A stretch of 64,000 bases of DNA from positions 97,702 through 161,701 of the forward strand of contig CAWBPM010000002.1 in assembly GCA_963790825.1 (NCBI GenBank), given 5' to 3'. Below are positions 39,515-55,758 of the stretch, piece by piece. Position numbers and translations under genes: made by a program. The stretch is from Candidatus Levyibacteriota bacterium (GTDB lineage: Bacteria > Patescibacteriota > Microgenomatia > Levybacterales > UBA12049). The notes beneath the pieces were generated by a model, which saw nothing but the letters and a program-made list of their open reading frames with translations, was not told where the DNA came from and made no database searches. The number at the start of each line of letters is the position of its first letter. Positions within the stretch are counted from its first letter, which is position 1.

Positions 39515-39515
39515 T

Positions 39516-39884
39516 ATGCGAATTTTACTAGTAGAAGACGATACTTTTTTCCAGAAATTCTACACAATGAAACTTACTGAAGCTGGTTTTCAGGTAGAAT
39601 TGGCTGAAAACGGAGCGGTAGGACTCGAAAAAGTTGGAGTTTCTCCGTATCCGGATTTAATTGTTTTGGACCTTGTTATGCCGGTAAAAGATGGATTTGA
39701 GTTTTTACGCGATTTTAAAAGTATAAAAATTCAGAAAAACATTCCAATTCTTGTATTCTCGACTTTGGGGCAAGAACAAGATATTACTAAAGCGAAAGAA
39801 ATGGGCGCAACGGACTATGTTAGCAAGAGTTTTTTTGATTTTGACAAATTACTTAAAAAGATTAATGATTTAATTAACAAATAA
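39516..39884 (+). CDS. response regulator receiver-only protein (CheY/PilH-like)
   Basis: MRILLVEDD...DLIVLDLVMPVKDGFEFL...VFSTLG...K shows the receiver Asp pocket and phospho-Asp context. 122 aa, no output domain. Confidence 0.75.
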   Translation: MRILLVEDDTFFQKFYTMKLTEAGFQVELAENGAVGLEKVGVSPYPDLIVLDLVMPVKDGFEFLRDFKSIKIQKNIPILVFSTLGQEQDITKAKEMGATDYVSKSFFDFDKLLKKINDLINK

Positions 39885-39901: not shown

Positions 39902-41584
39902 ATGCTAATTACGAGTGAAGAGCTGAAAAAATTAGTTTTGAACACCAAGTTACTGGAAGAAAAAGAGTATCTGGTAATTGAAGAGTTTGCGAAAAATTCA
40001 AATGTCGATCCGGCTGAAGCTTTAGTTCAAAAAGACGTTATTTCTGATGAAAATTTAGGAATAATGATCGCGGACTTTTTAAAAGTACCTTTTGTAACTC
40101 TGTCTAAGCTTTCCATCCCTGAAGATGTTATTCGTATCGTCCCCGAAAGAATTGCCAGAAAGCACAAAGTAATTCCCTTCGCCAAGGATGAGTCGGGAAT
40201 AAAACTCGCGATGGTTGATCCGTCCAATAAAGAACTTGTAGATCTAATCTCAATGAAAACCGGAGATAAAGTTATCCCGCATCTGGCGACAGAGCGTGAT
40301 ATTTATAACACACTTAGAGTTTATCGAAAAGATTTACAAAAGACATTTCAGGATCTACTTACGGAAGAATTGAGAAAATCGGGAAGCATCGTTAATGAAG
40401 CACCGGTTGAGAAGATTGTTGACATGATCATAGACTATGCATATCAGGATAAAGCTTCGGATATTCATATCGAACCTGAAGAAAAAGATTCATTGGTTCG
40501 CTTTCGCATTGATGGCATACTTCACGATGTTCTGATTATACCCAAAGCACTTCATGAACAAGTAACAACCCGTATAAAAGTATTGTCCCGTCTTAGAACG
40601 GATGAACATATGGCTCCGCAAGACGGCAAACTTAGGATTAAATTAGAAGAGGAAGAGCTTGATATTCGTGTGTCAATTCTACCGATTTCGGGCGGAGAAA
40701 AGACAGTCATGCGACTTCTCGCTTCACGCTTCGGGCAATTTTCACTTCTGGATTTAGGTATGAATGAGAAAGATTTGAAAAAAGTAACGAACGCGTTCAG
40801 CAAATCATACGGCATGGTACTTTCAACAGGCCCGACAGGTTCGGGAAAAACGAGCAGTATTTACGCAATCTTAAAAATTCTTAATACCCGGGAAAAAAAT
40901 ATTACAACAATTGAAGATCCGGTTGAGTACAGGATCAAGGGTGTTAATCAGATCCAGGTAAATTCGAAAACTAATTTAACTTTTGCTAACGGTTTAAGAT
41001 CAATTTTAAGACAGGATCCGAACATTGTTTTCGTGGGAGAAATACGTGATAACGAAACTGCGGGAATTGCCGTAAATGCTGCTTTAACCGGACATTTAGT
41101 ATTATCAACACTGCATACCAATGATGCTGCTACTGCTCTGCCCCGTTTGACAGACATGCAGGTAGAGCCGTTTCTGGTTGCTTCAACTGTTAATGTTATT
41201 ATTGGTCAAAGACTGGTTAGAAAAATCTGCGAAATGTGCAAAGCAACAACAATGGCAAGTCGCTCGGAACTGGTAAAAAATCTATCCGAAGAAGTAGTAT
41301 CGAAGCATTTTGACCAGAAAGAAGAACTACGCGTCTTTAGGGGTCAGGGATGTAAAGTTTGCCACACTACAGGATATGCCGGACGTATCGGAGTATTTGA
41401 AGTTTTAGAGGTGAGTAAAACCATCAGAGCGCTTATTGCGAAAAAAGCTGATGCGGACATGATCGTGCAGAAAGCGATGGAAGAAGGGATGACCACTATG
41501 CTTGATGACGGACTTGAAAAAGTTGCCCGGGGAATAACGACTATTGAGGAAGTATTCAGAGTAACGAAAGTAGAAAACGCATGA
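39902..41584 (+). CDS. pilB: type IV pilus assembly ATPase PilB (GspE family)
   Basis: N-terminal GSPII_E_N/MshEN-like domain, Walker A GPTGSGKTSS, Asp box, His box and a Cys-x2-Cys...Cys-x2-Cys-type zinc motif (CEMCKA...CKVCHTTG). 560 aa. Confidence 0.85.
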   Translation: MLITSEELKKLVLNTKLLEEKEYLVIEEFAKNSNVDPAEALVQKDVISDENLGIMIADFLKVPFVTLSKLSIPEDVIRIVPERIARKHKVIPFAKDESGIKLAMVDPSNKELVDLISMKTGDKVIPHLATERDIYNTLRVYRKDLQKTFQDLLTEELRKSGSIVNEAPVEKIVDMIIDYAYQDKASDIHIEPEEKDSLVRFRIDGILHDVLIIPKALHEQVTTRIKVLSRLRTDEHMAPQDGKLRIKLEEEELDIRVSILPISGGEKTVMRLLASRFGQFSLLDLGMNEKDLKKVTNAFSKSYGMVLSTGPTGSGKTSSIYAILKILNTREKNITTIEDPVEYRIKGVNQIQVNSKTNLTFANGLRSILRQDPNIVFVGEIRDNETAGIAVNAALTGHLVLSTLHTNDAATALPRLTDMQVEPFLVASTVNVIIGQRLVRKICEMCKATTMASRSELVKNLSEEVVSKHFDQKEELRVFRGQGCKVCHTTGYAGRIGVFEVLEVSKTIRALIAKKADADMIVQKAMEEGMTTMLDDGLEKVARGITTIEEVFRVTKVENA

Positions 41585-42630
41585 AAACAGAACGAGTCAG
41601 CCTTTCCGGCAATGATAAAATCGGTTTTATCAGTAGTCTTACTACTATGCTTGGGGCGGGCATTCCAATTCTTGAAACAGTAGATTCGCTCCTTGAAGAC
41701 GCGAAAGGCGGACAGAAAAAGCTACTCGAAACCATGCGGGCAGATTTAACGCAGGGACAACATATCTATTTTACGTTTGCAAAGTTTCCCTTAATTTTCG
41801 ATAAAGTAACCATCAATATTATTCGTGCGGCAGAAGAGGCGGGGACATTGGATGTTACGCTCACGGATGTAAAAAACAATATTCAAAAGGAAATGGAATT
41901 TACCGATAGAATTCGCTCGGCGCTTATTTATCCTATGTTTATCGCCTTTATATTTGTTGCGGTACTTTTAATGATATTAATTGTTGTCGTCCCAAAAATT
42001 AGCACAGTATTTGTACAATTGAAAGTGAAGTTGCCATTACCGACAAAAATTCTCATATTTTTGTCAAATATGTTATTGAACTATACCATACCGGTAATTA
42101 TCGGCTTTATTGTTTTTACTATCCTGGCGATTTACATTTATAAAAGAGAAAAAGGATTCATCATTCAAACGCTAACATCTCTGCCGGTTATTTCAAATTT
42201 GATGAAAGAAATTGATTGGAACCGTTTTACCAGAAGCATGTTTTTACTTCTCAGCGCCGGTATTCCGATTACCAGTGCCTTGGAAATGACACAAGACGTG
42301 GTAACCAGAAAAGAAATAAAAAAAGCAATTAAGCACGCAAGCGATGTAGTATTTACGGGAAAAAAATTGTCGGAAGGCTTAAAAGATGAAAAGAATGTAA
42401 TTTCACCGATTGTCATCAGAATTATTGAAGCGGGAGAGAAAACCGGATCTTTGGATAAGGCTATGCAGGATGCCGCAGATTTTCTTGAATATCAGATATC
42501 CGGAAACTTAAAAGCAGCTACCGCGTTAATTGAACCGATGATGCTGGTTATTGTCGGGGTGCTTATCGGGGGAATGATGATCGCAATCATCGGTCCAATT
42601 TACAGTATGATAGGGCAAATAAGTCCATAA
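41581..42630 (+). CDS. pilC: type IV pilus inner-membrane platform protein PilC (GspF family)
   Basis: Two T2SS-F-like repeats with TM helices. 4-nt overlap with pilB. 349 aa. Confidence 0.75.
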   Translation: MKTERVSLSGNDKIGFISSLTTMLGAGIPILETVDSLLEDAKGGQKKLLETMRADLTQGQHIYFTFAKFPLIFDKVTINIIRAAEEAGTLDVTLTDVKNNIQKEMEFTDRIRSALIYPMFIAFIFVAVLLMILIVVVPKISTVFVQLKVKLPLPTKILIFLSNMLLNYTIPVIIGFIVFTILAIYIYKREKGFIIQTLTSLPVISNLMKEIDWNRFTRSMFLLLSAGIPITSALEMTQDVVTRKEIKKAIKHASDVVFTGKKLSEGLKDEKNVISPIVIRIIEAGEKTGSLDKAMQDAADFLEYQISGNLKAATALIEPMMLVIVGVLIGGMMIAIIGPIYSMIGQISP

Positions 42631-42634
42631 TCCT

Positions 42635-43150
42635 ATGCAGATACATCATTCGTTTTCCTCTTCCAAACAAGCCGGATTTCCCCCGGTTCAATCGGGGTTT
42701 ACTCTGGCGGAATTAATATTAGTTATGTTGATTTTTACTACTCTTGTCGGAATTGCGACCATTAACTTGGCGCATATCCAACGCCGATCATCTATGACCA
42801 GCAGCATAAACATGCTGGCAACCGACATGAAAGAACAGCAAGTAAAAGCAATGGTTGGGGATACCGAAAGCAGAGCAAGTCCCGATAATTACGGTATTTA
42901 TTTCGGTACAAGTTCTTATACGCTTTTTCATGGCACCTACTCTGCAACTGATAGCGCAAATACCGTTATTCCAATCGATGCTACATTGCATTTTGCGACT
43001 CCCGGAGCCAGTATTATTTTTACCAGAGAGAGTGGTGACGTGTTGAATTATAGTATAAATGCTAACCTGATCATAATTCAGGATATAACGAATGGAGAAG
43101 TGACTAAGCTTAAGTTTAATAAATTCGGTGCGATAATAGGAACATATTAA
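42635..43150 (+). CDS. prepilin-type N-terminal cleavage/methylation domain protein (minor pilin/pseudopilin)
   Basis: Class III signal QSGFTLAELILVMLIF (G|FTLxE). Confidence 0.65.
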   Translation: MQIHHSFSSSKQAGFPPVQSGFTLAELILVMLIFTTLVGIATINLAHIQRRSSMTSSINMLATDMKEQQVKAMVGDTESRASPDNYGIYFGTSSYTLFHGTYSATDSANTVIPIDATLHFATPGASIIFTRESGDVLNYSINANLIIIQDITNGEVTKLKFNKFGAIIGTY

Positions 43151-43153
43151 ATT

Positions 43154-43672
43154 ATGAAAAATTTTCTTTTCATTTCGAGTCATGATTATTTGAAAGGCTT
43201 TACTATTGTTGAATTCCTTATTTATATGGGAATACTTGTTATTTTACTTACTGCTTTAACTAGTGTTTTTACCTCAATTCTCGATGTATCTTCAGAGTCT
43301 CAGGCAAGTTCCGCAGTAGAGAGAAACGGAAAGTATATTCTGGCAAAACTGGCGTATGATATTCATCAGGCGACCGGTTCCGGTGTTTTGTCCCCGGTTT
43401 TGGGAAGTTCTTCAGGTAGCCTTAAACTTTCTCTCGGAGGTATAACAAGCACTTACAGCACGAATAATAGCGGCAATTTACAAGTAACATCAAATCTGGG
43501 CACGGATTTTCTAAGCAGCTATGATGCCAGTGTTTCCGGCTTAACATTTACCACATTGGGTAATAGCGGAGGAAAAAATTCAGTACAAATTAGCTTTACT
43601 TTGACTAGTTTGATGCAGCGAATATCCGGTAACGAAACAGCAAATTTTTCAACAACGGTTGGAACCAGATAA
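43154..43672 (+). CDS. prepilin-type N-terminal cleavage/methylation domain protein (minor pilin/pseudopilin)
   Basis: KGFTIVEFLIYMGILVILL class III signal. Ser/Thr-rich body. Confidence 0.6.
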   Translation: MKNFLFISSHDYLKGFTIVEFLIYMGILVILLTALTSVFTSILDVSSESQASSAVERNGKYILAKLAYDIHQATGSGVLSPVLGSSSGSLKLSLGGITSTYSTNNSGNLQVTSNLGTDFLSSYDASVSGLTFTTLGNSGGKNSVQISFTLTSLMQRISGNETANFSTTVGTR

Positions 43673-43679
43673 TTAATAT

Positions 43680-44078
43680 ATGCAAGAAAAAAATTTAATT
43701 AACAGTAATCAAAAGGAAGGGGGACAAGCGCTCATTACCTTGCTTTTTTTTGTAATCATTGCCATAACTATAACTTCGGCATCAGTTGTGGTATTAATCG
43801 CAAACAGCACCTCCGCGACGAAATACGAGGAAGGAATCAGGGCATTTTATGTAGCGGAAGGTGGAGCGGAAAACGCGGTTCTTCGATTACTGAGAGATCC
43901 TACTTATACAGGTGAAACATTGACAATTTCCGATGGAACTGCAACGATATCTGTAAGCGGGTCCGGTCCTTTTACAATTACGTCAAAAGGCGTTGTTGGA
44001 AATTTTACAAGAACAGTTCAAGTAAGCGCTGCCTACGTGAATAATATATTAAGCATTACTTCCTGGAAGGAAATTTAA
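43680..44078 (+). CDS. pilus-associated protein with N-terminal hydrophobic helix (PilX/pseudopilin-like, non-canonical leader)
   Basis: GGQALITLLFFVIIAITITSASVVVLIA hydrophobic segment without the G|FTLxE consensus. Located inside the minor-pilin run. Confidence 0.35.
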   Translation: MQEKNLINSNQKEGGQALITLLFFVIIAITITSASVVVLIANSTSATKYEEGIRAFYVAEGGAENAVLRLLRDPTYTGETLTISDGTATISVSGSGPFTITSKGVVGNFTRTVQVSAAYVNNILSITSWKEI

Positions 44079-44080
44079 CA

Positions 44081-45196
44081 ATGAGTAAGGGAATTATCTA
44101 TTTACAAAAAGAACAATTTGATTTATATCTCAACGATCAACAAAAAATCTTTACCTGCCAATTTACAAAAGATCTGGTAAATTACATGGAAGTAATTAAT
44201 AAAGAAGCGTTTGAAAATCTTATTACCTCATTTATCACGACGAATAAACTGCAACCGGCAAATCTCATTATTGTTTTAGCAAATTCTATAGTTTTTACAA
44301 AAGAAATCACAAATCCTCAACCAACTCCAAACGATGCAAAATCTGCTCCTGATAAATTAAAGTTAATTGCAGAAGAAAAGGCCACGAAAGATAGAGAGGG
44401 ATTATTGATCCAACAATTTATTGACAACATACCCTTTGCCGAAGTAAGTCATAAAATTATTTCTCTCCCGACCGGAAAAAAAGTAATTGCCGCCAATACG
44501 GATTTATATGACAGAATTAAAAATGTTTTTGCAAAATCAGGATTTATTATAGAAGCAGTAGCACCTATCGCAGTTTTAGATGCCAGCATCAGTGCACAAC
44601 CAAATTTTTCCCTGCAAATGGGGCAGCTTATGCTTGGGAAATATGACATATTGAGACAAAATAGTTTGGTGGTTAATTATCAGAATGAATTAATAAAATC
44701 CGGTAACAAAAATAAACATGCAGTGGGAAAAAGTACGAATAAACGAGCCTTTATTCTTTCCGGAGTTTTGGGGTTACTACTTCTTGTTCTGGGAGTCATG
44801 GTATATATGACCTATTTTGCTTCACAAACAACGTCTAAAAAACCTTTACCCGGTGCTTTAACTCCGGCTTCCGCCAGTCCCACCGGCCTACCGGTTGCAT
44901 CGGGATCGGCACAAGTTATTCCAGATAACTCGGGTGTTACTATTATTGCAACAGAAGGGGAGGATAGTCTTTCTACCACGCTTAGAGAAAATCTCACTTC
45001 TTTAGGGTTTACCAATGTTAGCTCAGTCAGCTCAGGACTTACCAGTATTCCTCGGACAACAATTTCTTTTACATCAAGTACATCTGCCGATGTAAAAGTT
45101 AAAATAGTAAATGCTGTACAAGCATTATCACCCGAAGCCGTGGTCGCTCCGGATATTAACAGTAGCGGTATTACTATTAATTTATCTAATAAATAG
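44081..45196 (+). CDS. pilus assembly protein, PilM-N-terminal-like cytoplasmic domain fused to PilN-like TM/periplasmic part (tentative)
   Basis: About 210 cytoplasmic residues starting GIIYLQKEQFDLYL (PilM-like start), one TM helix (AFILSGVLGLLLLVLGVMVYM), then a Ser/Thr/Pro-rich periplasmic tail. Sits between the pseudopilins and the major pilin. Confidence 0.3.
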   Translation: MSKGIIYLQKEQFDLYLNDQQKIFTCQFTKDLVNYMEVINKEAFENLITSFITTNKLQPANLIIVLANSIVFTKEITNPQPTPNDAKSAPDKLKLIAEEKATKDREGLLIQQFIDNIPFAEVSHKIISLPTGKKVIAANTDLYDRIKNVFAKSGFIIEAVAPIAVLDASISAQPNFSLQMGQLMLGKYDILRQNSLVVNYQNELIKSGNKNKHAVGKSTNKRAFILSGVLGLLLLVLGVMVYMTYFASQTTSKKPLPGALTPASASPTGLPVASGSAQVIPDNSGVTIIATEGEDSLSTTLRENLTSLGFTNVSSVSSGLTSIPRTTISFTSSTSADVKVKIVNAVQALSPEAVVAPDINSSGITINLSNK

Positions 45197-45199
45197 CTT

Positions 45200-45766
45200 C
45201 CTTTATTTTCCCTCTTGACAATTAGGAAAAGGATATGATTTACTAAATGCAGAGATATGAAAACAACTGCCCCGATAAATAAACTAGCTAAAGGTTTTAC
45301 CCTCATCGAGCTCTTAGTTGTTATCGGCATTTTAGCAATTCTTTTGGCAATCACCTTAATCGCAATTAATCCGGCCAGACAATTCTCCCAGGCAAATAAT
45401 ACAAAAAGAAGCAGCGATGTGAATGCTATTCTTAATGCCGTCAATCAGTATATGGCAGATAATAAAGGTGCTCTTCCCACAGGTATTAGTACGACAGCCC
45501 AGACGATTAACGGAGTAGATTTTGGAGCCATGTGCACTGCATTGGTTCCTACATATATAGCCGCACTTCCGGTAGATCCATTATCTAATGCAAATGCGGT
45601 ACAGTCTACAGATTGCACGAGTACTACATGGAATACAGGATACGTAGTACAGCAGTTAACAGGTGGCAGCAATAGGCTTACGGTATCCGCACCGGGAGCA
45701 GAGCTGGGGGCCACTATCTCCGTAACCAGATAAAGAGTTTCTCCTTATTAATTTAATTATTATTAA
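45200..45766 (+). repeat. 567-bp perfect direct repeat, copy 1 (pilin promoter + pilin gene + 33 nt 3' flank)
   Basis: Identical base-for-base to 48076-48642 by direct comparison of the printed sequence. The flanks diverge immediately outside both ends. Confidence 0.85.
45257..45733 (+). CDS. pilA: type IV major pilin (prepilin with 13-aa leader, G|FTLIELLVV)
   Basis: MKTTAPINKLAKG|FTLIELLVVIGILAILLAITLIAINP class III signal. 158 aa, with two Cys near the C-terminus (disulfide loop). A TTGACA hexamer lies 35 nt upstream. Confidence 0.8.
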   Translation: MKTTAPINKLAKGFTLIELLVVIGILAILLAITLIAINPARQFSQANNTKRSSDVNAILNAVNQYMADNKGALPTGISTTAQTINGVDFGAMCTALVPTYIAALPVDPLSNANAVQSTDCTSTTWNTGYVVQQLTGGSNRLTVSAPGAELGATISVTR

Positions 45767-46144
45767 GTTTTATTTTGTTTAGTTTGTTGACGAATGAATC
45801 CTATTTAATATACTTATCTCATCTGTGAGTCAGATTGAAAAAGCAATTAAAAGTCCAATTCCTTGTTCGGAAGAACAAGCCTCACTTAGTAATATTCAAA
45901 GACCTACACTTGACCAGGCCAGGAGGGCAGTTAAAGAAATGGATGCATCATATACCACCCAAAGACTAAAAGGCTTCGAAGATTTAACTATTCCTAAACG
46001 AGGCCAAAATCGCATGATTCTCCAAGGCGATAATTAGTAGTAATGATACTGACTCCTTTTTTAATCGCTGCTATATAAAGAAATTATGAAGATGTTACTT
46101 AATCAGAGTGAAAAAATATGATATGAGGAGAAGAGAATTTATTT

Positions 46145-46381
46145 CTATTTCTTTTTGGATTTTCCTTTACTTGATGATTGATTTACAAGATAGAGGAGAC
46201 CGACCAGGAAACCTCCACCGATAATTGCAAAGATAACATACTTTTGCAGCATTGCAGGATCATTATATAAATAGTTTATGCTAAAGACAATCTTAACAAA
46301 AAGCACGAAAACCAATGCCAAGATAAGAAATGCTATAACTGCTTTTGCGTTACTGTTATGATTTCCTTTTTCAAGCTTCAT
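46145..46381 (-). CDS. small membrane protein (two TM helices, Lys-rich C-terminus)
   Basis: 78-aa ORF inside the segment bracketed by the 567-bp direct repeats. Confidence 0.35.
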   Translation of the reverse strand: MKLEKGNHNSNAKAVIAFLILALVFVLFVKIVFSINYLYNDPAMLQKYVIFAIIGGGFLVGLLYLVNQSSSKGKSKKK

Positions 46382-46465
46382 AATTTATTATTGATACATA
46401 CTCAACCAATTGTCAAGAGGCAATTTATTAAAGAATATAGTTTTTCCTTAGATATTAAGTAAGTC

Positions 46466-47926
46466 TCATTTTGTAAAAATTGTATAGTTACCAATATTTT
46501 TACTTTGGCTATAATGATTTTTGATAAATTGTACAATAGGACTAAGATCCTGACTATTTGTTTTTCCTAAGATAATCATTGGTACTTTTTTCTTTGTTAA
46601 ACTATTGATTATATTCTTCTGATAATTCGTTTCTACCTCGATCGGAGAAATTAAATCAGACCGTGTAGCATTTATTCTATCAGCTAAAAAATAAACTAAC
46701 GGAACATATTGATATATATAAATAAAATCGTTGGGTTTTGTTTTTGTCTGAATATACTTAGTTATCTGCATTGTTCTTTCAATTTCCTGATTAGAAAGAA
46801 AAACGTGAAGCCTGGGGTCTTGAGCGAAAGTTGTATCATACTGCATGGGAGGATTCCACCTATAATATCCGTAAAAATAAGCAGAATACAATCCAAGCCC
46901 TGTAATAAATATGAGAATAAGAAGAAAAAACTTCTTATTAAGTTCACTTTTATTATTACTGATGATAATTGCCAGGGGGAGGCAAGATATTGCAAGTAAA
47001 GGAACAAAGTGATCATAGTCGGTAGTCGGGCGTATACCAAGTAAATAAAATGTAGCAGTAAAAAGTGGTACGATTAAAAGATTTTTATTCGATTTTAAGC
47101 AAATAAAAAATGAGATAACAGAAAGTGTAAGGGGGGAAGTATAAAGAATGAATTTAAGTATTTTTATAATAAATGATCCTTGGTAAATAAATTGCGTGTC
47201 CAGAGTTTTACCGAAAAGTATCCGCTCGAAAGTATAGATATACATGTCTTTAATAAACGGCATAAATGAAGAAGTAAAAAGTAGTATTCCTGTGATTACT
47301 ATTCCGGAAGTTAAAAGACCGAACAAAAAGTAAAAAACATAGATCTTTTTTTTAAAAAAAAGAAAAGGCAAGAATGAAACGAGAAACAGACCGATACCAA
47401 AATTTTGTTTAGAAAGAAAAATCAGAATGACCATAATGCCGGACATAAAAAAGTACACCCCCTTCTGCCTAATGATTCCCAGCAAATAAAAAAATATTGT
47501 GTAGAGATAAAAGCATACTGCAAACATTGTCGGCCAGGGAAAATTGATATGAGCCGGTCCCCAGGCTATAAAAAATAAAAGCGACAACAAAACAAGAGGA
47601 ACCTTCTTGGTTATAAGTCTTACTATTTTATAGAGGGCAAAAAGTGACAACAGTGAAATAGCCAAACTGGCCAAACGTCCTGAGAATACACTCTCTCCGA
47701 ACGTATGAAGAAATACAGAGGTAATGAGAAATGATAGCGGAGTATATGTAACATCAAAATCCCGATATGGAACTTGTCCATGCACGACCCTTAGTGCAGA
47801 GTTTAAGATATACCCCTCATCCGAATATATTATTCCTTTAAATTGGAAAAAAATAAGAATATTAAGAAGTACCAATATAAAAAAAAGAAACAGTAAATTG
47901 TTTAGAGAAAATAATTTATCTCTCAT
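46466..47926 (-). CDS. GT-C fold glycosyltransferase, ArnT/PMT (GT39/GT83)-like polytopic membrane protein
   Basis: IIYSDEGYILNSALRVVHGQVPYRDFDVTYTPLSFL resembles the DE...Y...A...G.W..P motif of ArnT/PMT-family enzymes in the first periplasmic loop. More than 10 TM helices and a soluble C-terminal domain. Located between duplicated pilin genes. Confidence 0.5.
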   Translation of the reverse strand: MRDKLFSLNNLLFLFFILVLLNILIFFQFKGIIYSDEGYILNSALRVVHGQVPYRDFDVTYTPLSFLITSVFLHTFGESVFSGRLASLAISLLSLFALYKIVRLITKKVPLVLLSLLFFIAWGPAHINFPWPTMFAVCFYLYTIFFYLLGIIRQKGVYFFMSGIMVILIFLSKQNFGIGLFLVSFLPFLFFKKKIYVFYFLFGLLTSGIVITGILLFTSSFMPFIKDMYIYTFERILFGKTLDTQFIYQGSFIIKILKFILYTSPLTLSVISFFICLKSNKNLLIVPLFTATFYLLGIRPTTDYDHFVPLLAISCLPLAIIISNNKSELNKKFFLLILIFITGLGLYSAYFYGYYRWNPPMQYDTTFAQDPRLHVFLSNQEIERTMQITKYIQTKTKPNDFIYIYQYVPLVYFLADRINATRSDLISPIEVETNYQKNIINSLTKKKVPMIILGKTNSQDLSPIVQFIKNHYSQSKNIGNYTIFTK

Positions 47927-48075
47927 AAGTATGACAAGTATATAGGAAAAGGATTTTTCTTTCCATCGAATTAGTTTCTGGTTTCATTTACTATAATTCG
48001 TTTTACCCTGTTTGTTGATATTTTCTTATTTTTACTTGATTCTATTTACCTTAAATTTAGCTTCCGTTATGTTTC

Positions 48076-48642
48076 CCTTTATTTTCCCTCTTGACAATTA
48101 GGAAAAGGATATGATTTACTAAATGCAGAGATATGAAAACAACTGCCCCGATAAATAAACTAGCTAAAGGTTTTACCCTCATCGAGCTCTTAGTTGTTAT
48201 CGGCATTTTAGCAATTCTTTTGGCAATCACCTTAATCGCAATTAATCCGGCCAGACAATTCTCCCAGGCAAATAATACAAAAAGAAGCAGCGATGTGAAT
48301 GCTATTCTTAATGCCGTCAATCAGTATATGGCAGATAATAAAGGTGCTCTTCCCACAGGTATTAGTACGACAGCCCAGACGATTAACGGAGTAGATTTTG
48401 GAGCCATGTGCACTGCATTGGTTCCTACATATATAGCCGCACTTCCGGTAGATCCATTATCTAATGCAAATGCGGTACAGTCTACAGATTGCACGAGTAC
48501 TACATGGAATACAGGATACGTAGTACAGCAGTTAACAGGTGGCAGCAATAGGCTTACGGTATCCGCACCGGGAGCAGAGCTGGGGGCCACTATCTCCGTA
48601 ACCAGATAAAGAGTTTCTCCTTATTAATTTAATTATTATTAA
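48076..48642 (+). repeat. 567-bp perfect direct repeat, copy 2
   Basis: Identical to 45200-45766 (offset 2876 bp). Confidence 0.85.
48133..48609 (+). CDS. pilA: type IV major pilin, exact duplicate of 45257-45733
   Basis: Encoded protein identical over all 158 aa. Lies inside repeat copy 2. Confidence 0.8.
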   Translation: MKTTAPINKLAKGFTLIELLVVIGILAILLAITLIAINPARQFSQANNTKRSSDVNAILNAVNQYMADNKGALPTGISTTAQTINGVDFGAMCTALVPTYIAALPVDPLSNANAVQSTDCTSTTWNTGYVVQQLTGGSNRLTVSAPGAELGATISVTR

Positions 48643-48767: not shown

Positions 48768-49244
48768 ATGAAAACAACTGCCCCGATAAATAAACTAGCT
48801 AAAGGTTTTACCCTCATCGAGCTCTTAGTTGTTATCGGTATTTTGGCAGTATTACTGGCAATTACTTTAGTTGCCATCAATCCGGCCAGACAATTTTCCC
48901 AGGCAAATAATACAAAACGAAGCAGTGACGTAAACTCCATTCTGGATGCAATTAATCAGTACATGGCAGATAATAAAGGTGCTCTTCCCACAGGTATTAG
49001 TACAACTGCCGCAACAATTAATGGGACGGGCTTTACAGCTCTCTGTAGCGCTTTAGTACCTACTTATATAGCCGCTCTTCCGACTGATCCATTATCGAAT
49101 AATTCTGCCGTACAGTCCAGTAGCTGTACAAGTACAACATGGAATACAGGATACGTAGTACAGCAGTTAGTAGGAGGAGGTAATAGGGTAACTGTTTCTG
49201 CTCCTATGGCTGAGCTTAGTGCAACTGTTTCAGTAACGAGATAG
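48768..49244 (+). CDS. pilA: type IV major pilin, divergent third paralogue
   Basis: Same leader and N-terminal helix (MKTTAPINKLAKGFTLIELLVVIGILA). About 30 substitutions concentrated in the central/C-terminal variable region. Own TTGACA-N17-ATTAAAT promoter-like sequence upstream. Confidence 0.8.
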   Translation: MKTTAPINKLAKGFTLIELLVVIGILAVLLAITLVAINPARQFSQANNTKRSSDVNSILDAINQYMADNKGALPTGISTTAATINGTGFTALCSALVPTYIAALPTDPLSNNSAVQSSSCTSTTWNTGYVVQQLVGGGNRVTVSAPMAELSATVSVTR

Positions 49245-49268: not shown

Positions 49269-50297
49269 ATGTCTTTGCCTAAAATATCTGTAAATATTCC
49301 ATTTCGTGTAACAGGTAATGCAAATATTGCCCTCAAATCTCTCCTCTACGTTGATTATCCAAAACAACTTTTTGAAATAATTCTTATAGAAGGAAATCAG
49401 CCGGCAGCTCAGCGCAACGCGGGTATTCGTCTATCAAAAGGTGATATTATTTATTTTTTAGATAACGATTCAAGAGTTAGAAAAAACTCGCTGCGTCTAA
49501 TAGCAAATGAGTTCTCATACTCTTCTGCAGCAGCTCTTGGAGGCCCTAGTCTTACATACAATCAAGGCAAGAATGATCTCAGTCAATTAATTGGTTTTGC
49601 TTTAGAAACCTTTTTTGGTTCACTTCGCATGCGTTATCGTTACAGCAAAAAAACAACGGGTGAAGCATCAGAATATGAACTAATCGGAGCGAATCTCGCA
49701 ATGCGCAAAGCTGTTTTGAATAAGGTTGGCGGATTTGATGAAAGGTTTTATCCAAATGAAGAGACTGAGCTACTCAGAAGACTTAAAGATAAAGGGTATA
49801 TTTTGCAATACAAAAGAGAACTATTTATCCATCGGAAGCACAGAAAAGATCTGAGTGAGCTGACGAAGCAATTTTATCAATATGGAAGCGGGCGCATGAA
49901 GCAAATTAGGATAAACCCAAAGATAGAAGATATATTATTTATACTACCGGTTTTGTTCGAGGGCTATCTCATTACTCTTATTTTTTATCACACGCTTTTT
50001 TACGTATCTCCACTTCTTTTCTATTTGCTGCTTGCAATTACTACTTCAGTAAAAGCTGCTATTAAATACAAACGGCCTGATTTATTTTTTTCTTTGCCTC
50101 CACTTTTCTTACTTATCCACCTTTCTTACGCTACCGGTGAAATTACAGAGTATTTAAAACCCTTGTTTAATAAGCAACTGAAACTTCCTAAGCGTACCAT
50201 TAAACATAAGATTAAAGCGATTAAAATAAAAACGTATACAGAGGAGCTTTCCAGTGTTGAGAAACTTATTTCTTTTCAGCCAAAACGAGGTAATTAA
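49269..50297 (+). CDS. glycosyltransferase family 2 protein with C-terminal TM helices
   Basis: GT-A fold motifs (IILIEGNQP...DNDS...) in the first ~230 aa, then a membrane-embedded C-terminus. Confidence 0.6.
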   Translation: MSLPKISVNIPFRVTGNANIALKSLLYVDYPKQLFEIILIEGNQPAAQRNAGIRLSKGDIIYFLDNDSRVRKNSLRLIANEFSYSSAAALGGPSLTYNQGKNDLSQLIGFALETFFGSLRMRYRYSKKTTGEASEYELIGANLAMRKAVLNKVGGFDERFYPNEETELLRRLKDKGYILQYKRELFIHRKHRKDLSELTKQFYQYGSGRMKQIRINPKIEDILFILPVLFEGYLITLIFYHTLFYVSPLLFYLLLAITTSVKAAIKYKRPDLFFSLPPLFLLIHLSYATGEITEYLKPLFNKQLKLPKRTIKHKIKAIKIKTYTEELSSVEKLISFQPKRGN

Positions 50298-51048
50298 AGC
50301 ATATTGTATGAGATGGAAATATTTTATCGAGCAAGATGCAGAGATAAGAAAATGCAAGAAGAATAGGATAAAAAAGCAGTGCGAACAAGTAGAAAATTTT
50401 GTTTTTGTTTGCTATCTCAATAAGATAATCCATTAGTAATACAATAATTGTAGAAAAAATAGAACCTTCCTTTACTACTTTTAGTACCGTACATTGATTC
50501 CTATCAAATAATTTACGCAAGCCATATTCAGTAAAACGGAAATAATCTCTTGGGATCTCATGAAGACTCCAGGTTAGTGGGGCGCTGATAAGAATCTTCC
50601 CTCCTTTTTTTACCACCCTAACCATTTCACGAACACATAACTCAGGATTGGAATGATGTTCAAGGACTTGAAAAGAAACAACAGTATCAAAATTATTATC
50701 TTTAAATGGCAAGAGCAAAGATTTTTTATAATTGTTATCAAAAAATAGATCTGGTTTTTCACCAAGGATTCCTTTCGACCTTGAATAGTCGGGAAAATCA
50801 ATACCAACATAACTACTAACAGCAGAAAAAACTCCCTGATAGGGTTTTTCTCCACAACCAACGTCCAGTAATTTTCCATAAAATTTGTATCTGTGCGCTA
50901 GTAGTTTAATATCGCGTAGTAAGTAATATTTAGCTAAAAAATGAGGGGCTATGAGAAAATAAAGCGGTTGCAAACTCTTCCCAAAAGATTTTACAAATCC
51001 GGAGGCCTCAATAATACGCTTATTTTTTATATTTTTTTTCATTATCAA
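50266..51048 (-). CDS. class I SAM-dependent methyltransferase
   Basis: Motif I LLDVGCGEKPYQ. 260 aa with a C-terminal hydrophobic segment. Convergent 32-nt overlap with the GT2 gene. Confidence 0.6.
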   Translation of the reverse strand: MIMKKNIKNKRIIEASGFVKSFGKSLQPLYFLIAPHFLAKYYLLRDIKLLAHRYKFYGKLLDVGCGEKPYQGVFSAVSSYVGIDFPDYSRSKGILGEKPDLFFDNNYKKSLLLPFKDNNFDTVVSFQVLEHHSNPELCVREMVRVVKKGGKILISAPLTWSLHEIPRDYFRFTEYGLRKLFDRNQCTVLKVVKEGSIFSTIIVLLMDYLIEIANKNKIFYLFALLFYPILLAFSYLCILLDKIFPSHTICFNYLVLAEKK

Positions 51049-51056
51049 AATTAATT

Positions 51057-52229
51057 TTAATCATACATTAATAATTGGTACATTGCAGAATATAATTTTT
51101 CTCTATTGAATCTATTTTGTATAAAAGATTGTATCGCATGACGATTAAAAGGAGTACCATTTATACAATAAATAATCTTATTAATAAATTGTTCCTTATT
51201 CTTAACTAAATAGCCATTTTTATTGTTAACTATTATATCATTACACCCCTGAATATTATAGGAAATGACTGGTAATCCTAAACTTTGCGCTTCGAGTAAA
51301 ACATAAGGAAAACTTTCCCATTTACTGGTACAAAGCAGCAAATCATTGTCTTGGTATACATTCGCCGTAGCTTTATTTTCTATATATCCTAAATAATGAA
51401 CATTTGACCATTTTTTACTCAGTTTTATGATATCTTTTCTCAACTCTCCGTCGCCCGCAATATTCCATACAATCTTATTTTGATAACCTGAACTATTCAT
51501 GCTATCTATAATTTCAATCAAGTCGAACACTCCTTTTTGTTCAGTCAGCCTTCCGATCCAAAGCAAAGCAAAGGTACCTTTTTTGCTGGTAATTTTAGTT
51601 TTACTAATCGTAGCCTTATGAGAGAAATAGGAAAAGTCAAATGGGTGATATATTTTTTGTATTTCTTGTTTAGGTATTAATTTCGTTAATCTTTCCTCAT
51701 CAAATGTATTCATAACATGCAGTCTTAATGCTCCGGATAAAGCAAATTTATAAATCAGCGAGGAGTAAAGCAGATTATGCAGTTTTGACTGTAACGATTT
51801 TGTAATCGGATAAAAGGATGGAATATGGAGTCCATAAATAACAGGAGGAAGATTTTTGTAACCAATAACATATTTCAAAAGAATGACTTCTAGAAGATTA
51901 TTCGAACTGTAGATTACATCAAATTTACCCAGTTTCTTTTGCATATCTTTTAATCCTGAAACAGTAACATAGCGGACATCTCCCAATTGTTTTTTAATAT
52001 GTCCGCTTTTTTCTTTATATATTTTTCTATCTTGCAAACCTAAAAAATAAATATTATAGAAAAAAAGAGTTTTTTGCAGCATTTTTTCATCAAATGTCAA
52101 AATAGTAATATCCAAATCAGGATATCTTTCTTTTATACCGGTGGCAGTATCGATAAAATATTTTGCTAGCCCGCCGCCATATTCAAGCAGTAAGTAGTTA
52201 AAAAAAACAATCTTCATATTTCTAGTCAA
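51057..52229 (-). CDS. glycosyltransferase family 1/4 (GT-B) protein
   Basis: C-terminal E-X7-E-like region FPYVLLEAQSLGLPVISYNIQGCNDII typical of GT4 retaining transferases. Confidence 0.65.
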   Translation of the reverse strand: MTRNMKIVFFNYLLLEYGGGLAKYFIDTATGIKERYPDLDITILTFDEKMLQKTLFFYNIYFLGLQDRKIYKEKSGHIKKQLGDVRYVTVSGLKDMQKKLGKFDVIYSSNNLLEVILLKYVIGYKNLPPVIYGLHIPSFYPITKSLQSKLHNLLYSSLIYKFALSGALRLHVMNTFDEERLTKLIPKQEIQKIYHPFDFSYFSHKATISKTKITSKKGTFALLWIGRLTEQKGVFDLIEIIDSMNSSGYQNKIVWNIAGDGELRKDIIKLSKKWSNVHYLGYIENKATANVYQDNDLLLCTSKWESFPYVLLEAQSLGLPVISYNIQGCNDIIVNNKNGYLVKNKEQFINKIIYCINGTPFNRHAIQSFIQNRFNREKLYSAMYQLLMYD

Positions 52230-54279
52230 TTAATTTATTTCTAATTGCGGATTTTACATATGTATTCTCTGTAATATCCTCATTAAATTTAGCTTTGTAA
52301 TTTTGCTTGAATTTCTGAATCGTTAACGGAGTAACGTGACATTCTTTATCTAAAATATAGAGCTGGCCATAATATGTTCTCCAAATAGAGTAATTGATTA
52401 TTGCCTTTTTCATATTAGAAAGGGAATTAATACAGTCCTTGCTTCCTTTAAACTGGCTAATTGCCAGACCCGAATATGCGCTTGGATTTTGTTCATCGAT
52501 CCGGATAGCTCTTTGGTAATAGTTTTCTGCAGTTTTCGGATCGTGATAAAAAGACATGAGAAAATCTCCGGCCCGGACCAGAGTATTGGAGTAAAATGAA
52601 GGAATTTCGGGGGTAATGAGACCATCTTCGTCTAATTGTAATTCGTCGAGTCTGACAGGGTGCATGATTTTCCAATTATCCTCGAACGCTTGTATGTAAT
52701 CGGCTTTTTTGTAAACTGTTTTATTACTAATTATCTCACCCACCAAACCTCTTGGTAATAAATAAAATCCTCTCGGAACAAATGAGACATCAAAAGTGGC
52801 GTATAATTTTCTATTCTTGCTTATTTCCTGAAGTGTGTTATTTAAGACATTTTTTAGTTTAACTGCGGGATGAGATTTATGATATTTATTAATTTCCAGG
52901 TCAAGATACACATTCCCGCCGACTCCCAGAGGATTAATAATGTCTACATCCGGTCTGAACTTAACGACGAAATGCTCATACCAGATATTAAAAGTAGTTG
53001 TATCTCCAGATACAAGAAGAACAGAATTTTCAGGAAGTTCACTTAAAATATCTTTCGCATACGTATTACCGATCTGAGTGTGAGACATATCGGTTTTCTG
53101 AAAATTATAATAGATTAAATCAAACGGAATGAGCAGGAAATAGGCCAGAATTAGAGTGGTGTATATCTTTTTTGAAAGCTTTGAGTCCAATAATTCCTTA
53201 AGATAAAGAAAACCAAAAGGAACAAGAAGCATAAAAATAACATAAGGAAGAACATAAAAGCGTTCACTAATTCCCCAGGAAGTCGTAGTAGTAATAACAG
53301 GTGCAGAGTAATATACAAAGAACGGGCCGGATAAAAGAAAAGACAGAAGAATACTGATCAGAAGCAGTTTATTTTTTTTGTAGAGCTTTATAATTCCTAA
53401 GAGCGCAACAGCACAGATTTGATATGAAAAGGTAGCAATCAGAGTCTTGAAAAAATCTCCCACAACAATTAGTTTCACCCGTGTCGGGATCTGATCCACG
53501 AGGCCGGGTGCAGTTCCGTAATCTTTTCTTAAGATAAGATCCAGAAAATTTTTTAGGCTCGATGGATTATCCCAATTAACAATCGGGTTGGATAATGCGC
53601 TAAACGGTACGTAGATATAAGGTGATAGTCCCAAGAAAAAGAATAAAAAAGCAATAAAAATGTGTCTTCTTTGTGAAAAAATAACCGACGATCTTAAAAA
53701 AAGTAAAAAAAGAATTCCGGGAAAAATAAGAATAATAGTCTGGTGATGTGTCAGAGATAATCCGCAAAAAAATGAAAGCAAATAAAAATAGCGAATCTGT
53801 TTATCTTGGTAAAATACATAGGTAAAATAAAAAATAATAATTACAAAAAGATTGTTCAGACCAAATACTTCGGGAATTTCTGCATGCAGCCAGAAATAAT
53901 AAGAAAATGCTAAAATCGCAGTCGAAAGAAGAGAGAGAAAGAAATTTTTTGTAATTCTGTAAGATAATTTATAAAAGAAAATAAGGCCGATAAAGGAAGC
54001 AATCGTTGAAACCAATGCAACTTTTGTGACCGGCGGGAGAGAAATTGGTAGATGAGAAAAGAGAAAACCCAACATAATAAAAAGCGGATATCCCGGGGGA
54101 TGGGCAATGCCATGAAAAAAAGATGCGGTTACCAAATCTCCAATATCGCCACTATAGATATCTGAAGTTATGTTATGAAGGTAAAGGCCAAGAATAAGCC
54201 CAAAAAAAACAAATAAGACAATCTTTCTAACCTGGTTAGTCACAGGTACTATTATAGCAACACCGGTACTCCTTGACAT
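52222..54279 (-). CDS. GT-C fold glycosyltransferase-like membrane protein (DUF2723/PMT_2-like) with C-terminal TPR region
   Basis: SGDIGDLVTASFFHGIAHPPGYPLFIMLGFLF contains the HPPGYP signature recalled for DUF2723. About 12 TM helices, then a soluble C-terminus with TPR-like repeats (YYQRAIRIDEQNPSAYSGLAISQF). Confidence 0.5.
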   Translation of the reverse strand: MSRSTGVAIIVPVTNQVRKIVLFVFFGLILGLYLHNITSDIYSGDIGDLVTASFFHGIAHPPGYPLFIMLGFLFSHLPISLPPVTKVALVSTIASFIGLIFFYKLSYRITKNFFLSLLSTAILAFSYYFWLHAEIPEVFGLNNLFVIIIFYFTYVFYQDKQIRYFYLLSFFCGLSLTHHQTIILIFPGILFLLFLRSSVIFSQRRHIFIAFLFFFLGLSPYIYVPFSALSNPIVNWDNPSSLKNFLDLILRKDYGTAPGLVDQIPTRVKLIVVGDFFKTLIATFSYQICAVALLGIIKLYKKNKLLLISILLSFLLSGPFFVYYSAPVITTTTSWGISERFYVLPYVIFMLLVPFGFLYLKELLDSKLSKKIYTTLILAYFLLIPFDLIYYNFQKTDMSHTQIGNTYAKDILSELPENSVLLVSGDTTTFNIWYEHFVVKFRPDVDIINPLGVGGNVYLDLEINKYHKSHPAVKLKNVLNNTLQEISKNRKLYATFDVSFVPRGFYLLPRGLVGEIISNKTVYKKADYIQAFEDNWKIMHPVRLDELQLDEDGLITPEIPSFYSNTLVRAGDFLMSFYHDPKTAENYYQRAIRIDEQNPSAYSGLAISQFKGSKDCINSLSNMKKAIINYSIWRTYYGQLYILDKECHVTPLTIQKFKQNYKAKFNEDITENTYVKSAIRNKLID

Positions 54280-54313: not shown

Positions 54314-54697
54314 ATGGCAAGAATTTTAGTTGTCGAAGATGACCTTTTTATCCGCGAATTATATGTAGAAACATTAACCTCCGAAAAATATGAAGTGGAA
54401 TACGCGGTTGATGGGCAAGATGCATTTAAAAAAATTAAGCAGGGAGGGTACGATCTTATTCTGCTGGATATTATTATGCCCAAAATGGATGGACTAACTG
54501 TTATGAGAAAAATTGCCAAAGACCCCCCGCAAAAGCCAAATAAATTAGTAATTTTTCTGACAAACCTCGACGATTCGGATGAGATAAGGCAGGCACTTGA
54601 GCTGGGTAACGGATACCTCATAAAAAGCCAGTTAACTCCGGCCGATTTATTAAATGAAGTAAAAATGGATCTGGAGAAACTTCCTGCCGCTTCTTAA
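54314..54697 (+). CDS. response regulator receiver-only protein
   Basis: MARILVVEDD...DLILLDIIMPKMDGL...IFLTNL receiver motifs. 127 aa. Confidence 0.7.
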   Translation: MARILVVEDDLFIRELYVETLTSEKYEVEYAVDGQDAFKKIKQGGYDLILLDIIMPKMDGLTVMRKIAKDPPQKPNKLVIFLTNLDDSDEIRQALELGNGYLIKSQLTPADLLNEVKMDLEKLPAAS

Positions 54698-54717: not shown

Positions 54718-55758
54718 TTATTTTTTTAATTGTTCCTTAAAGTAATCAACCCAGGGATTTATAGCAGGATTTAGGTCTAAGCGGAGAGCAAGATAAAATG
54801 TAAGAAAGCTTCCATAAGCGAGCGTCTGCATAAAATCATCGTAAACAGTAGCGCCCGAGGTTTGAAACTCATGAATTTCATGCTTATTCTTGCGAACTAC
54901 CTCCATTGTGAGTGCCATGCGTTTTACAATTTTTACTGAGTAATTAAATGAGTTAAGAATAAGAAAATGAAGATTATTCTTTTTTGGGAACTGCAGGCCT
55001 TCCATAAGATGGTGATTTAGGTCCGGTACCAGGTAGAAAGCAGAAAACGTTTTACTAGTCTCATTGAATTGATTACGTAAAATCTGTCCGTTACCCGAAA
55101 GATGTTCGGCCGCGAAAATGACCGGAATTTTCTCCATAAAAATTTCGCTGTCTTGCATTGCTCGTTTTTGCAACTCCGAAAATTTTTCTTTCAACCGTAA
55201 AATGGCATTTGTAATCTCCTGCTCATTCACAGTAATAACCCTTGATTTATTTAATAGACCCAAAAGCCCAAGTATCGTATAGCCGTTTCCCAGTCTTGGG
55301 GTGCCGGCGGGATTAAGTGCGCCATCAAAAATATAAGCAGGTATATTATTCTTTTCGGCAAATTCTGCTAATGGTCCGCCTTTGCTGAGCACAAGCATTT
55401 TTGCATTTTTCGCCTTCGCTTCTTCTGCGCAGGAAAGAACCTCCTCGGTAGTTCCGGAATAGCTGGTGAGGACTACCAGGCTTTCCTGATTGACAAAAGT
55501 CGGTAAATGGTAATCTGTAACTATTTCAGTAGGATAGGCCATCCCAGAGCCCTGCAGGGCCTTGGTAACCAGTGCTCCGTAAATGGATGCGCCCATGCCG
55601 CAAAATACTATGTTTTTAATATTGGTAATAGGTTGAATTGGAAGCAATTGTACTTGCTGCCAAGCAGTTTTAAGCTGCTCTGCCAAAAGCATAGTTGACG
55701 CATACGTATCCTGCGGATCAATTTTCTTTATAGCTTCTGTGTCAGTTAGATTTTGCAT
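54718..55758 (-). CDS. bifunctional phosphoglucose/phosphomannose isomerase (SIS-domain, PGI/PMI family)
   Basis: SIS-domain motifs (VFCGMGASIYGALV, VLTSYSGTTEE) in a 346-aa protein. Adjacent to the cupin and phosphomannomutase genes. Confidence 0.6.
   Translation of the reverse strand: MQNLTDTEAIKKIDPQDTYASTMLLAEQLKTAWQQVQLLPIQPITNIKNIVFCGMGASIYGALVTKALQGSGMAYPTEIVTDYHLPTFVNQESLVVLTSYSGTTEEVLSCAEEAKAKNAKMLVLSKGGPLAEFAEKNNIPAYIFDGALNPAGTPRLGNGYTILGLLGLLNKSRVITVNEQEITNAILRLKEKFSELQKRAMQDSEIFMEKIPVIFAAEHLSGNGQILRNQFNETSKTFSAFYLVPDLNHHLMEGLQFPKKNNLHFLILNSFNYSVKIVKRMALTMEVVRKNKHEIHEFQTSGATVYDDFMQTLAYGSFLTFYLALRLDLNPAINPWVDYFKEQLKK

Follow-up and report, generated by a model that had tools for sequence, protein, structure and literature searches.

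In a 64,000-nucleotide stretch of the genome of a Candidatus Levyibacteriota bacterium (GenBank assembly GCA_963790825.1, contig CAWBPM010000002.1, positions 97,702 to 161,701 of the forward strand; hereinafter the window, the coordinates of which are used throughout), two predicted membrane glycosyltransferases of the GT-C class are encoded next to type IV pilin genes. One of these, the product of a 486-codon open reading frame (ORF) at 46466-47926 on the minus strand (GT-C486), is encoded between identical copies of pilA and was taken by a first-pass annotation for a candidate pilin O-glycosyltransferase; the other, larger protein, encoded by a 685-codon ORF at 52222-54279, also on the minus strand (GT-C685), belongs to the adjoining sugar cluster and was missed, as was the orientation of GT-C486, which runs opposite to that of the pilin genes. 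We consider it probable that the GT-C486 family is not pilin-associated, that in this genome GT-C486 entered a tandem array of pilins as an insertion specific to the lineage, and that GT-C685 is the likely pilin enzyme. Thus, the original reading appears to have captured the right kind of enzyme and the right neighborhood but probably the wrong gene, and the general idea, that pilins are glycosylated by a GT-C protein encoded with them, is much better supported for GT-C685 than for GT-C486.

The comparison of gene neighborhoods is central to this argument. The GT-C486 family consists of 63 proteins of about 485 amino acids, with 33-54% identity, and is confined to Microgenomates; its genome loci come from Levy-, Roizman- and Amesbacteria. 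When the flanks of 25 species-representative genome loci (10 kb on each side) were searched for the prepilin motif, a search validated on the five pilins of the window, and scanned by phmmer with all window pilus proteins, no pilin, PilB or PilC was detected at any of the 25. No pilin was found either near the five closest homologs with usable metagenome contigs (48-53% identity), the contexts of which are a large glycan cluster, a histidine kinase, RNase Y with HU, a position between methyltransferases, and ParA. Altogether, pilin or pilus linkage is observed in none of the 30 independent loci of this family. Furthermore, the family has no conserved neighbor, the best being a GT2 glycosyltransferase in 5 of 29 loci, and no association with TMEM260-like genes was seen in the family loci. 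In the Roizmanbacteria contig (1.23 Mb) that carries both elements, the GT-C486 homolog (L019) is located approximately 445 kb away from the pilus locus (L117).

The complementary line of evidence comes from related pilin arrays. In locus L034, the pilus operon is followed by three tandem pilins, a GT2, two methyltransferases, a GT4 glycosyltransferase, a TMEM260-like GT-C of 699 amino acids, one further gene and a response regulator, that is, the gene order of the window minus GT-C486 between the pilins. The same pattern recurs, with varied orientations, in L115, L116 and L117, and in L032 the pilins are followed by an acetyltransferase, a GT2, an epimerase and a methyltransferase, after which the contig ends. 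No GT-C486-type gene is present between the pilins in L032, L034, L115, L116 or L117. Because the relatives have the pilin arrays and the glycosylation island but lack GT-C486, we regard the latter as a lineage-specific insertion.

The situation with GT-C685 is quite different. In a metagenome scan with the alignment of its family, pilin genes were found in 30 of 80 loci (L035-L114), whereas the count among loci of the GT-C486 family is 0 of 29 (p=1.8e-5 by Fisher's exact test). In 26 of the 80, a pilin is encoded immediately upstream of the GT-C gene, on the same strand and at a distance of 0-281 nucleotides. The typical order in these 26 loci is PilB, PilB/T, PilC, pilin, GT-C, further pilins and minor pilins. 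Of 5 Microgenomates pilus loci, all 5 likewise have a gene of this family, and the lists of pilin and GT-C685 matches have 19 longest-contig sizes in common, including contigs of only 2.7-10.5 kb. In the window itself, GT-C685 is not directly downstream of a pilin but convergent with the pilins, 3 kb away from them and about 4 kb from GT-C486. The linkage to pilins thus persists across two gene orders, which points to functional coupling and not to inherited synteny alone. Given that only this family shows conserved pilin linkage, GT-C685 is likely to be the pilin O-glycosyl(mannosyl)transferase of this locus, or at least the best candidate for it.

The protein sequence of GT-C685 is compatible with such a role. 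It matches the Pfam family TMEM260-like (PF11028, formerly DUF2723) with a score of 84.5 bits against a cut-off of 24.2 and has TPR matches as well. The entire GT-C core aligns with the structure of human TMEM260 (9rql_A), with E=1.7e-38 in a single-sequence search and 4.8e-66 with the family profile, and the two proteins share the motif GD(I/S)G(D/E)L..A....G(I/V)AHPPGYPLF. Within this alignment, D45 of GT-C685, which is invariant in 58 homologs, corresponds to D52 of TMEM260, the proposed catalytic residue (PMC10214176). In the AF2 model (predicted local distance difference test score, pLDDT, 91.6), the membrane core is accompanied by an alpha/beta domain and, at the C-terminus, by the TPR helices (558-684); a Foldseek search of the PDB library with this model did not return TMEM260, so that it is the sequence searches that establish the homology to 9rql. 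A response regulator gene (54314-54697 in the window) adjoins the TMEM260-like gene, usually in divergent orientation, and this pairing is kept in L035, L036, L040, L115, L116 and L117.

What kind of protein, then, is GT-C486? The view that it is a GT-C enzyme and not a transporter is borne out by a Pfam match to PMT_2 (PF13231) over residues 62-205, marginal at 27.4 bits against a gathering threshold of 26.1 but also precomputed for many homologs, and by structure prediction. The AlphaFold model, built from a 56-sequence alignment (A1), has a pLDDT of 91.9 and a predicted template-modeling score of 0.93, and shows a polytopic protein with 11-13 transmembrane (TM) helices, the N-terminal module of which superimposes on solved GT-C enzymes of the GT-C_A fold, and a small C-terminal extracytoplasmic alpha/beta domain of about 130 amino acids (approximately residues 355-486). 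The fold matches that of ArnT (PDB 5f15), but ALG3 (19.5), AglB (19.1) and Pmt4 (18.4) score nearly as high, all at only 7-14% identity; hence the comparison reveals the fold but not the specificity, and the substrate class cannot be read from it. Searches of PDB chain sequences with GT-C486, as a single sequence and as a family profile, yielded nothing relevant, so that the protein is placed by fold comparison only. The DE...Y...A...G.W..P-type motif originally described for the periplasmic loop is present in the form S35-D36-E37-G38-Y39...A44...G50..P53-Y54.D56-F57 straight after TM1, except that it contains no Trp. The first loop helix (36-48) begins with the D36-E37 pair, which follows the TM1 helix (2-28), as befits the acidic first-loop motif of GT-C enzymes. 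D36, G38, D56 and F57 never vary among the 56 homologs (31-52% identity), at least 90% of which keep E37, Y39, G50 and Y54; the further invariant residues are W122, N128, K173, N175, R299, P300, T302, D303 and H306. This conservation argues for a functional enzyme, and GT-C486 is probably an intact, active GT-C glycosyltransferase.

The assignment of GT-C486 to known families, which the first-pass annotation had proposed to check against GT39, GT83, PglL and Wzy_C profiles, gave little beyond the marginal PMT_2 match. With respect to GT39, no match to PF02366, MIR or PMT_4TMC was obtained at E<=0.1, and the likeness to Pmt4 and Pmt1/2 is at the fold level only (8-14% identity). There is no sequence or profile match to the PDB chain of the GT83 enzyme ArnT and no NCBIfam match of any kind, hence none to an ArnT model (GT-C685 has no NCBIfam match either). 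The suggested kinship to TfpO/PilO/PglL does not hold up, with no Wzy_C detected at E<=0.1 and no NCBIfam model matched. The Pfam search also gave no match to TPR, as would be found in a TfpW-type protein combining GT-C and TPR, or to PF11028, and does not place GT-C486 in the YfhO, GtlB or PMT (PF02366) families. The alignment of the GT-C486 and GT-C685 family profiles with hhalign (86% probability, E=5e-6, N-terminal 250 columns) indicates a remote kinship between the two.

The genes of the locus, in the order of their coordinates, are as follows.

39902-41584, plus strand: pilB, the PilB ATPase (from the ORF and its translation)
41581-42630, plus strand: pilC, the PilC platform protein (from the ORF and its translation)
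42635-44078, plus strand: three minor pilins (N_methyl and PilX_N matches)
44081-45196, plus strand: gene for a PilM/N-like membrane protein (from the ORF and its translation)
45200-45766, plus strand: direct repeat, copy 1, with a TTGACA promoter-like box, pilA1 and 33 nucleotides of 3' flank
45257-45733, plus strand: coding sequence of pilA1, a prepilin of 158 amino acids (N_methyl, 32.9 bits)
46145-46381, minus strand: ORF of 78 amino acids with two predicted membrane helices, 84 nucleotides 3' of GT-C486 and on the same strand
46466-47926, minus strand: GT-C486, predicted GT-C_A fold glycosyltransferase of 486 amino acids with an ATG start
48076-48642, plus strand: direct repeat, copy 2, with pilA2 (coding sequence 48133-48609), identical to pilA1
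48768-49244, plus strand: pilA3, the third pilin paralog
49269-50297, plus strand: GT2 glycosyltransferase with membrane helices at the C-terminus (Pfam Glyco_trans_2_3, 69.7 bits)
50266-51048, minus strand: membrane-anchored S-adenosylmethionine methyltransferase (Methyltransf_11, 54.8 bits), kept in L034 and L116
51057-52229, minus strand: GT4 glycosyltransferase (Glycos_transf_1, 102.8 bits)
52222-54279, minus strand: GT-C685, TMEM260-like (DUF2723) predicted GT-C with C-terminal TPR (Pfam TMEM260-like)
54314-54697, plus strand: single-domain response regulator, divergent from GT-C685 (ORF)
54718-55758, minus strand: bifunctional PGI/PMI (Pfam, NCBIfam)
55759-56226, minus strand: cupin PMI-like protein (Pfam, NCBIfam)
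56210-57592, minus strand: PMM/PGM (Pfam, NCBIfam)

The gene order of the type IV pilus operon (39902-45196, plus strand) recurs in L032, L034 and L117, which have T2SSE and T2SSF annotations. The sugar cluster noted downstream of the pilins at the outset is there, and comprises the GT2, methyltransferase, GT4, bifunctional PGI/PMI, cupin PMI-like and PMM/PGM genes, the NCBIfam matches of the hexose-phosphate genes (54718-57592) all being under the equivalog cut-offs. Only 24 nucleotides separate pilA3 from the start of the GT2 gene, which has the same orientation and may share a transcript with the pilin. A GT2 likewise follows the pilins in L034, L115, L116 and L117, coming directly after the last pilin in L034, L115 and L117. 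The juxtaposition of the GT4 with a TMEM260-like gene is shared with L034, L036, L115 and L116. GT-C486 is convergent with pilA1 and divergent from pilA2, from which it is separated by an intergenic region of 206 nucleotides. The 78-codon ORF that follows it has no homolog in any of L001-L025 by phmmer and only sub-threshold Pfam matches, and may not be a genuine gene. In DNA this rich in AT, scanning for promoters and terminators gave no useful signal: there were 30 promoter-like sites where 21 would be expected, and 2 terminators where the expectation was 3.3. The transcription units are therefore deduced from strand and spacing only. The Rfam scan detected nothing in the locus, its only hits being two distant tRNAs. 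The low GC content of the GT-C486 segment (30-31%) does not speak for a foreign origin, given that the other membrane glycosyltransferase genes in this region are just as AT-rich (28-37% GC). Ahead of pilB there is a pair of genes for an Hpt-like protein and a response regulator (39113-39884), and L032 has a pair like it; the response regulators may couple the regulation of pilus and glycosylation genes.

The location of GT-C486 between identical pilA copies, as initially reported, is confirmed: pilA1 and pilA2 are contained in an exact direct repeat of 567 nucleotides (45200-45766 and 48076-48642), in which the identity ends abruptly on both sides, and which includes the promoter-like box, the entire coding sequence and the short 3' flank. 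The third pilin, pilA3, differs from them in 22 of 158 residues and has 84% nucleotide identity. An independent short-read assembly (Logan, run ERR11594402) contains a contig of 2369 nucleotides (L026) that equals window positions 45737-48105: it comprises the unique segment, extended at either end by 30 nucleotides of the repeat, and so stops 30 nucleotides inside each copy; thus, the GT-C486 segment has pilA sequence on both flanks in the reads themselves. The repeat could have originated by recent duplication, gene conversion or Campbell-type insertion. As for the pilins, which have more than 7000 homologous matches (the top 120 at 65-89% identity), the Ser/Thr-rich tail invoked in favor of glycosylation is a weak feature of these proteins: the last 12 residues are 25% Ser+Thr, compared to 19% across the whole mature pilin, the final residue is Arg, and the stretch richest in Ser and Thr is internal (residues 116-127, QSTDCTSTTWNT).

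Both GT-C proteins retain their acidic residues in the first loop. In functional terms, these observations would fit the following scheme. The PGI/PMI and PMM, together with the cytoplasmic GT2, GT4 and methyltransferase, would supply a lipid-linked sugar or a short glycan, with the GT2 loading sugar onto polyprenyl phosphate, and O-glycosylation of the pilins on the outer side of the membrane would follow, carried out by GT-C685 with its TPR domain recognizing the substrate. In the case of GT-C486, Asp36 and Glu37 of the acidic first external loop would, after flipping of the lipid-linked sugar, promote its transfer to a hydroxyl of an extracytoplasmic acceptor; in this scheme, the kind of donor, a role for D36 in catalysis and the choice of acceptor are all deductions. 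A Rosetta-stone hint in favor of a GT2-made polyprenyl-phosphate-sugar donor is provided by natural fusions of an N-terminal GT2 domain (PF00535) with a GT-C486-type domain, namely P0009 (719 amino acids) and the ORF 9113-11380 of L004 (755 amino acids). Another protein, encoded at 16515-18788 in L013, also combines an N-terminal cytoplasmic GT2 with a PMT_2-type GT-C. We favor, somewhat beyond an even chance, a cell-envelope glycoconjugate other than the pilin as the acceptor of GT-C486, which would at most add to or vary the pilin glycan.

How is the position of GT-C486 inside the pilin array to be explained, then? That this protein is a dedicated pilin O-glycosyltransferase, an analog of TfpO, PglL and TfpW that moves sugar from a lipid carrier to Ser/Thr of PilA, seems very improbable, even if it is a GT-C protein with an intact catalytic loop, is encoded between pilA copies, has the divergent intergenic region in common with pilA2, and finds a precedent in TfpW, a GT-C encoded beside pilA that glycosylates the pilin. 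Such a role is hard to reconcile with the lack of pilin linkage in all 30 family loci, with an orientation opposite to that of the pilins, unlike tfpO and tfpW, with the absence of Wzy_C, TPR or any other protein-recognition domain, with a pilin that ends in Arg and not in the C-terminal Ser of the TfpO type, and with syntenic relatives in which the pilins and the glycosylation island get by without GT-C486; besides, GT-C685 is a much better candidate in the same locus. Less improbable, but still unlikely, is a division of labor in which GT-C685 initiates glycosylation and the captured GT-C486 adds a further periplasmic sugar to the glycan of the pilin or to additional sites, resulting in a strain-specific pilus surface relevant for phage or host recognition. 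The co-location of GT-C486 with the pilins and the conserved glycosylation island, and the nature of the insertion, which is confined to this lineage and lies between the copies of a recent or homogenized pilA duplication, are compatible with this scenario. Diversifying selection on the pilin glycan is also plausible because pilin glycosylation shields Pseudomonas from pilus-specific phages (bioRxiv 10.1101/150227; PMC11841053). Nevertheless, the scenario derives solely from proximity in one genome, and the GT-C486 family elsewhere is associated neither with pilins nor with TMEM260-like genes.

Least probable of all is an assembly artifact or a strain mixture, in which the arrangement A-R-X-R-B would be a misresolved repeat (R), with a single pilA in the genome and a separate variant or element carrying GT-C486 (X). 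The exact repeat does exceed the length of short reads, and the Logan assembly breaks 30 nucleotides inside both copies, its graph fitting a linear duplication or an alternative path equally well. On the other hand, an NCBI contig of 751 kb carries the same GT-C486 protein, the segment X includes no replication or mobility gene among its ORFs and Pfam matches, the L026 overlaps show X flanked by pilA on both sides however the repeat is resolved, and tandem pilin arrays are normal in the relatives.

Several considerations weigh against the explanation that we prefer, namely that GT-C486 is an inserted member of a family with no pilin association and GT-C685 the likely pilin enzyme. The very position of GT-C486, inside the pilin array and less than 1.4 kb from the glycosylation island, is suggestive of a local link, for example, a strain-specific extra pilin sugar. 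The GT-C486 homologs examined are at most 54% identical to it, so no close ortholog from a sister genome is among them, and the context of P0004, the closest homolog on a long contig, which belongs to a large glycan-biosynthesis cluster, only shows that the family acts on some surface glycan. Both GT-C assignments, that of GT-C486 and that of GT-C685, are predictions from sequence and models, and the GT2 beside pilA3 has no match that would place it as a polyprenyl-phosphate-sugar synthase (no PDB sequence match, and only sub-threshold NCBIfam matches such as MftF and EpsD). Finally, the study of Saccharibacteria pili states that pilin glycosylation in Patescibacteria remains to be confirmed and lists glycosylation of the Saccharibacteria pili as an open question (PMC11623550).

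With all this in mind, the wider proposition that the type IV pilins of Patescibacteria (Candidate Phyla Radiation, CPR) are O-glycosylated, probably O-mannosylated, by a TMEM260 homolog encoded in or beside the pilus operon is put forward tentatively, its chances falling a little short of even; the additional claim that GT-C486, having been captured by a duplicated pair of pilA genes, modifies and diversifies the glycan of the pilin strikes us as unlikely. If the former is true, the TMEM260-like enzyme would represent a third, undescribed class of pilin glycosyltransferases, after TfpO/PglL and TfpW, and the pilins would give the bacterial proteins of the DUF2723/TMEM260 family their first candidate substrate. 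In the searched literature, the coverage of which is incomplete so that a prior description elsewhere is possible, no paper was found that considers TMEM260 together with pili, and DUF2723 occurs only in the human TMEM260 paper, where "distant homologs in bacteria" are mentioned (PMC10214176). The matter is of interest because pili are the main known means of host attachment for the ultra-small CPR bacteria, and the locus yields two ranked, testable candidates for pilin glycosylation, GT-C685 ahead of GT-C486. In favor of the former are the repeated occurrence of its family beside pilins in many lineages and a human homolog proven to act as a protein O-mannosyltransferase. The lesson of GT-C486 is a cautionary one: adjacency in a single genome was misleading with regard to what is an ordinary member of an uncharacterized GT-C family.

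A few other genes of the window deserve mention. At 23424-25109 (plus strand), a protein of 561 amino acids combines a polytopic membrane N-terminus, with a WDD motif after the first helix, and a C-terminal TPR, an architecture like that of TMTC or TfpW; only the TPR part aligned in the searches for GT-C similarity. The ORF at 58297-58680 (minus strand; 127 amino acids) matches the 'putative phage metallopeptidase' family PF18894 with 76.5 bits and has a DNA polymerase III delta-like gene on one side and, on the other, an unannotated ORF of 391 amino acids. Two overlapping ORFs of 359 and 415 amino acids at 36735-39000 (minus strand) appear by eye to be the N- and C-terminal halves of a PEP-utilizing enzyme (PEP synthase or pyruvate phosphate dikinase), as could result from the splitting of a gene, from a frameshift or from an error in sequencing. 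Next to them, the ORF at 34780-36252 looks, also by eye, like an acyl/acetyl-CoA synthetase with an odd C-terminus.

The comparison with characterized systems sets the two enzymes of this locus apart. Patescibacteria are not expected to possess lipid A, the acceptor of ArnT (GT83, the undecaprenyl-phosphate-L-Ara4N:lipid A transferase; PDB 5f15), which GT-C486 resembles in the fold only, at 10% identity. TfpO/PilO of Pseudomonas aeruginosa 1244 and PglL of Neisseria are polytopic proteins that O-glycosylate pilin from a lipid-linked donor; they are Wzy_C (O-antigen-ligase-like) proteins that move preassembled undecaprenyl-PP oligosaccharides, and the acceptor of TfpO, the gene of which adjoins pilA, is the C-terminal Ser of the pilin. 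GT-C486 is not TfpO/PglL-like because it lacks the Wzy_C domain, and it represents another fold class; its gene is on the opposite strand, and the window pilin has Arg at its end. The tfpO and tfpW genes sit just downstream of pilA, whereas pglL, which had been assumed to be encoded beside the pilin gene, is unlinked to pilE in Neisseria meningitidis (TfpW preprint). TfpW itself, the pilin D-arabinofuranosyltransferase of P. aeruginosa Pa5196/PA7, is a GT-C of 646 amino acids encoded directly downstream of pilA, with 11 TM helices, a first periplasmic loop that bears an acidic motif, and a large C-terminal periplasmic TPR domain (TfpW preprint). GT-C486 is similar to TfpW in being a GT-C with an acidic first-loop motif encoded beside a major pilin gene, but differs in the lack of TPR, the opposite strand and a position that is not directly downstream of pilA; the GT-C685 family is closer to TfpW than GT-C486 both by architecture (GT-C plus TPR) and by position (downstream of a pilin in 26 loci).

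The fusions of GT2 with GT-C486-type domains follow the logic of the monoderm GT2 plus GT-C pathways, such as CsbB/YfhO, GtlA/GtlB of teichoic acids, and Ppm1/Pmt of actinobacterial protein O-mannosylation. Indeed, in CsbB/YfhO, GtrB/GtrC and ArnC/ArnT, a cytoplasmic GT2 makes the C55-P-sugar and a GT-C transfers the sugar outside the cell (PMC5836110). GT-C486 is a new member of the GT-C/PMT_2 clan, outside GT39, GT83 and the TfpO/PglL and TfpW types. With human TMEM260 (PDB 9rql), the protein O-mannosyltransferase for IPT domains, GT-C685 shares the GT-C core, the motif and the C-terminal TPR; it differs in being bacterial, in that its proposed substrate is the type IV pilin and not an IPT domain, and in that the carrier would be a bacterial polyprenyl phosphate. 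Taken as a whole, the locus appears to represent a novel form of pilin glycosylation that would combine a TfpW-like logic, a GT-C with TPR encoded beside pilA, with an enzyme of the TMEM260 family.

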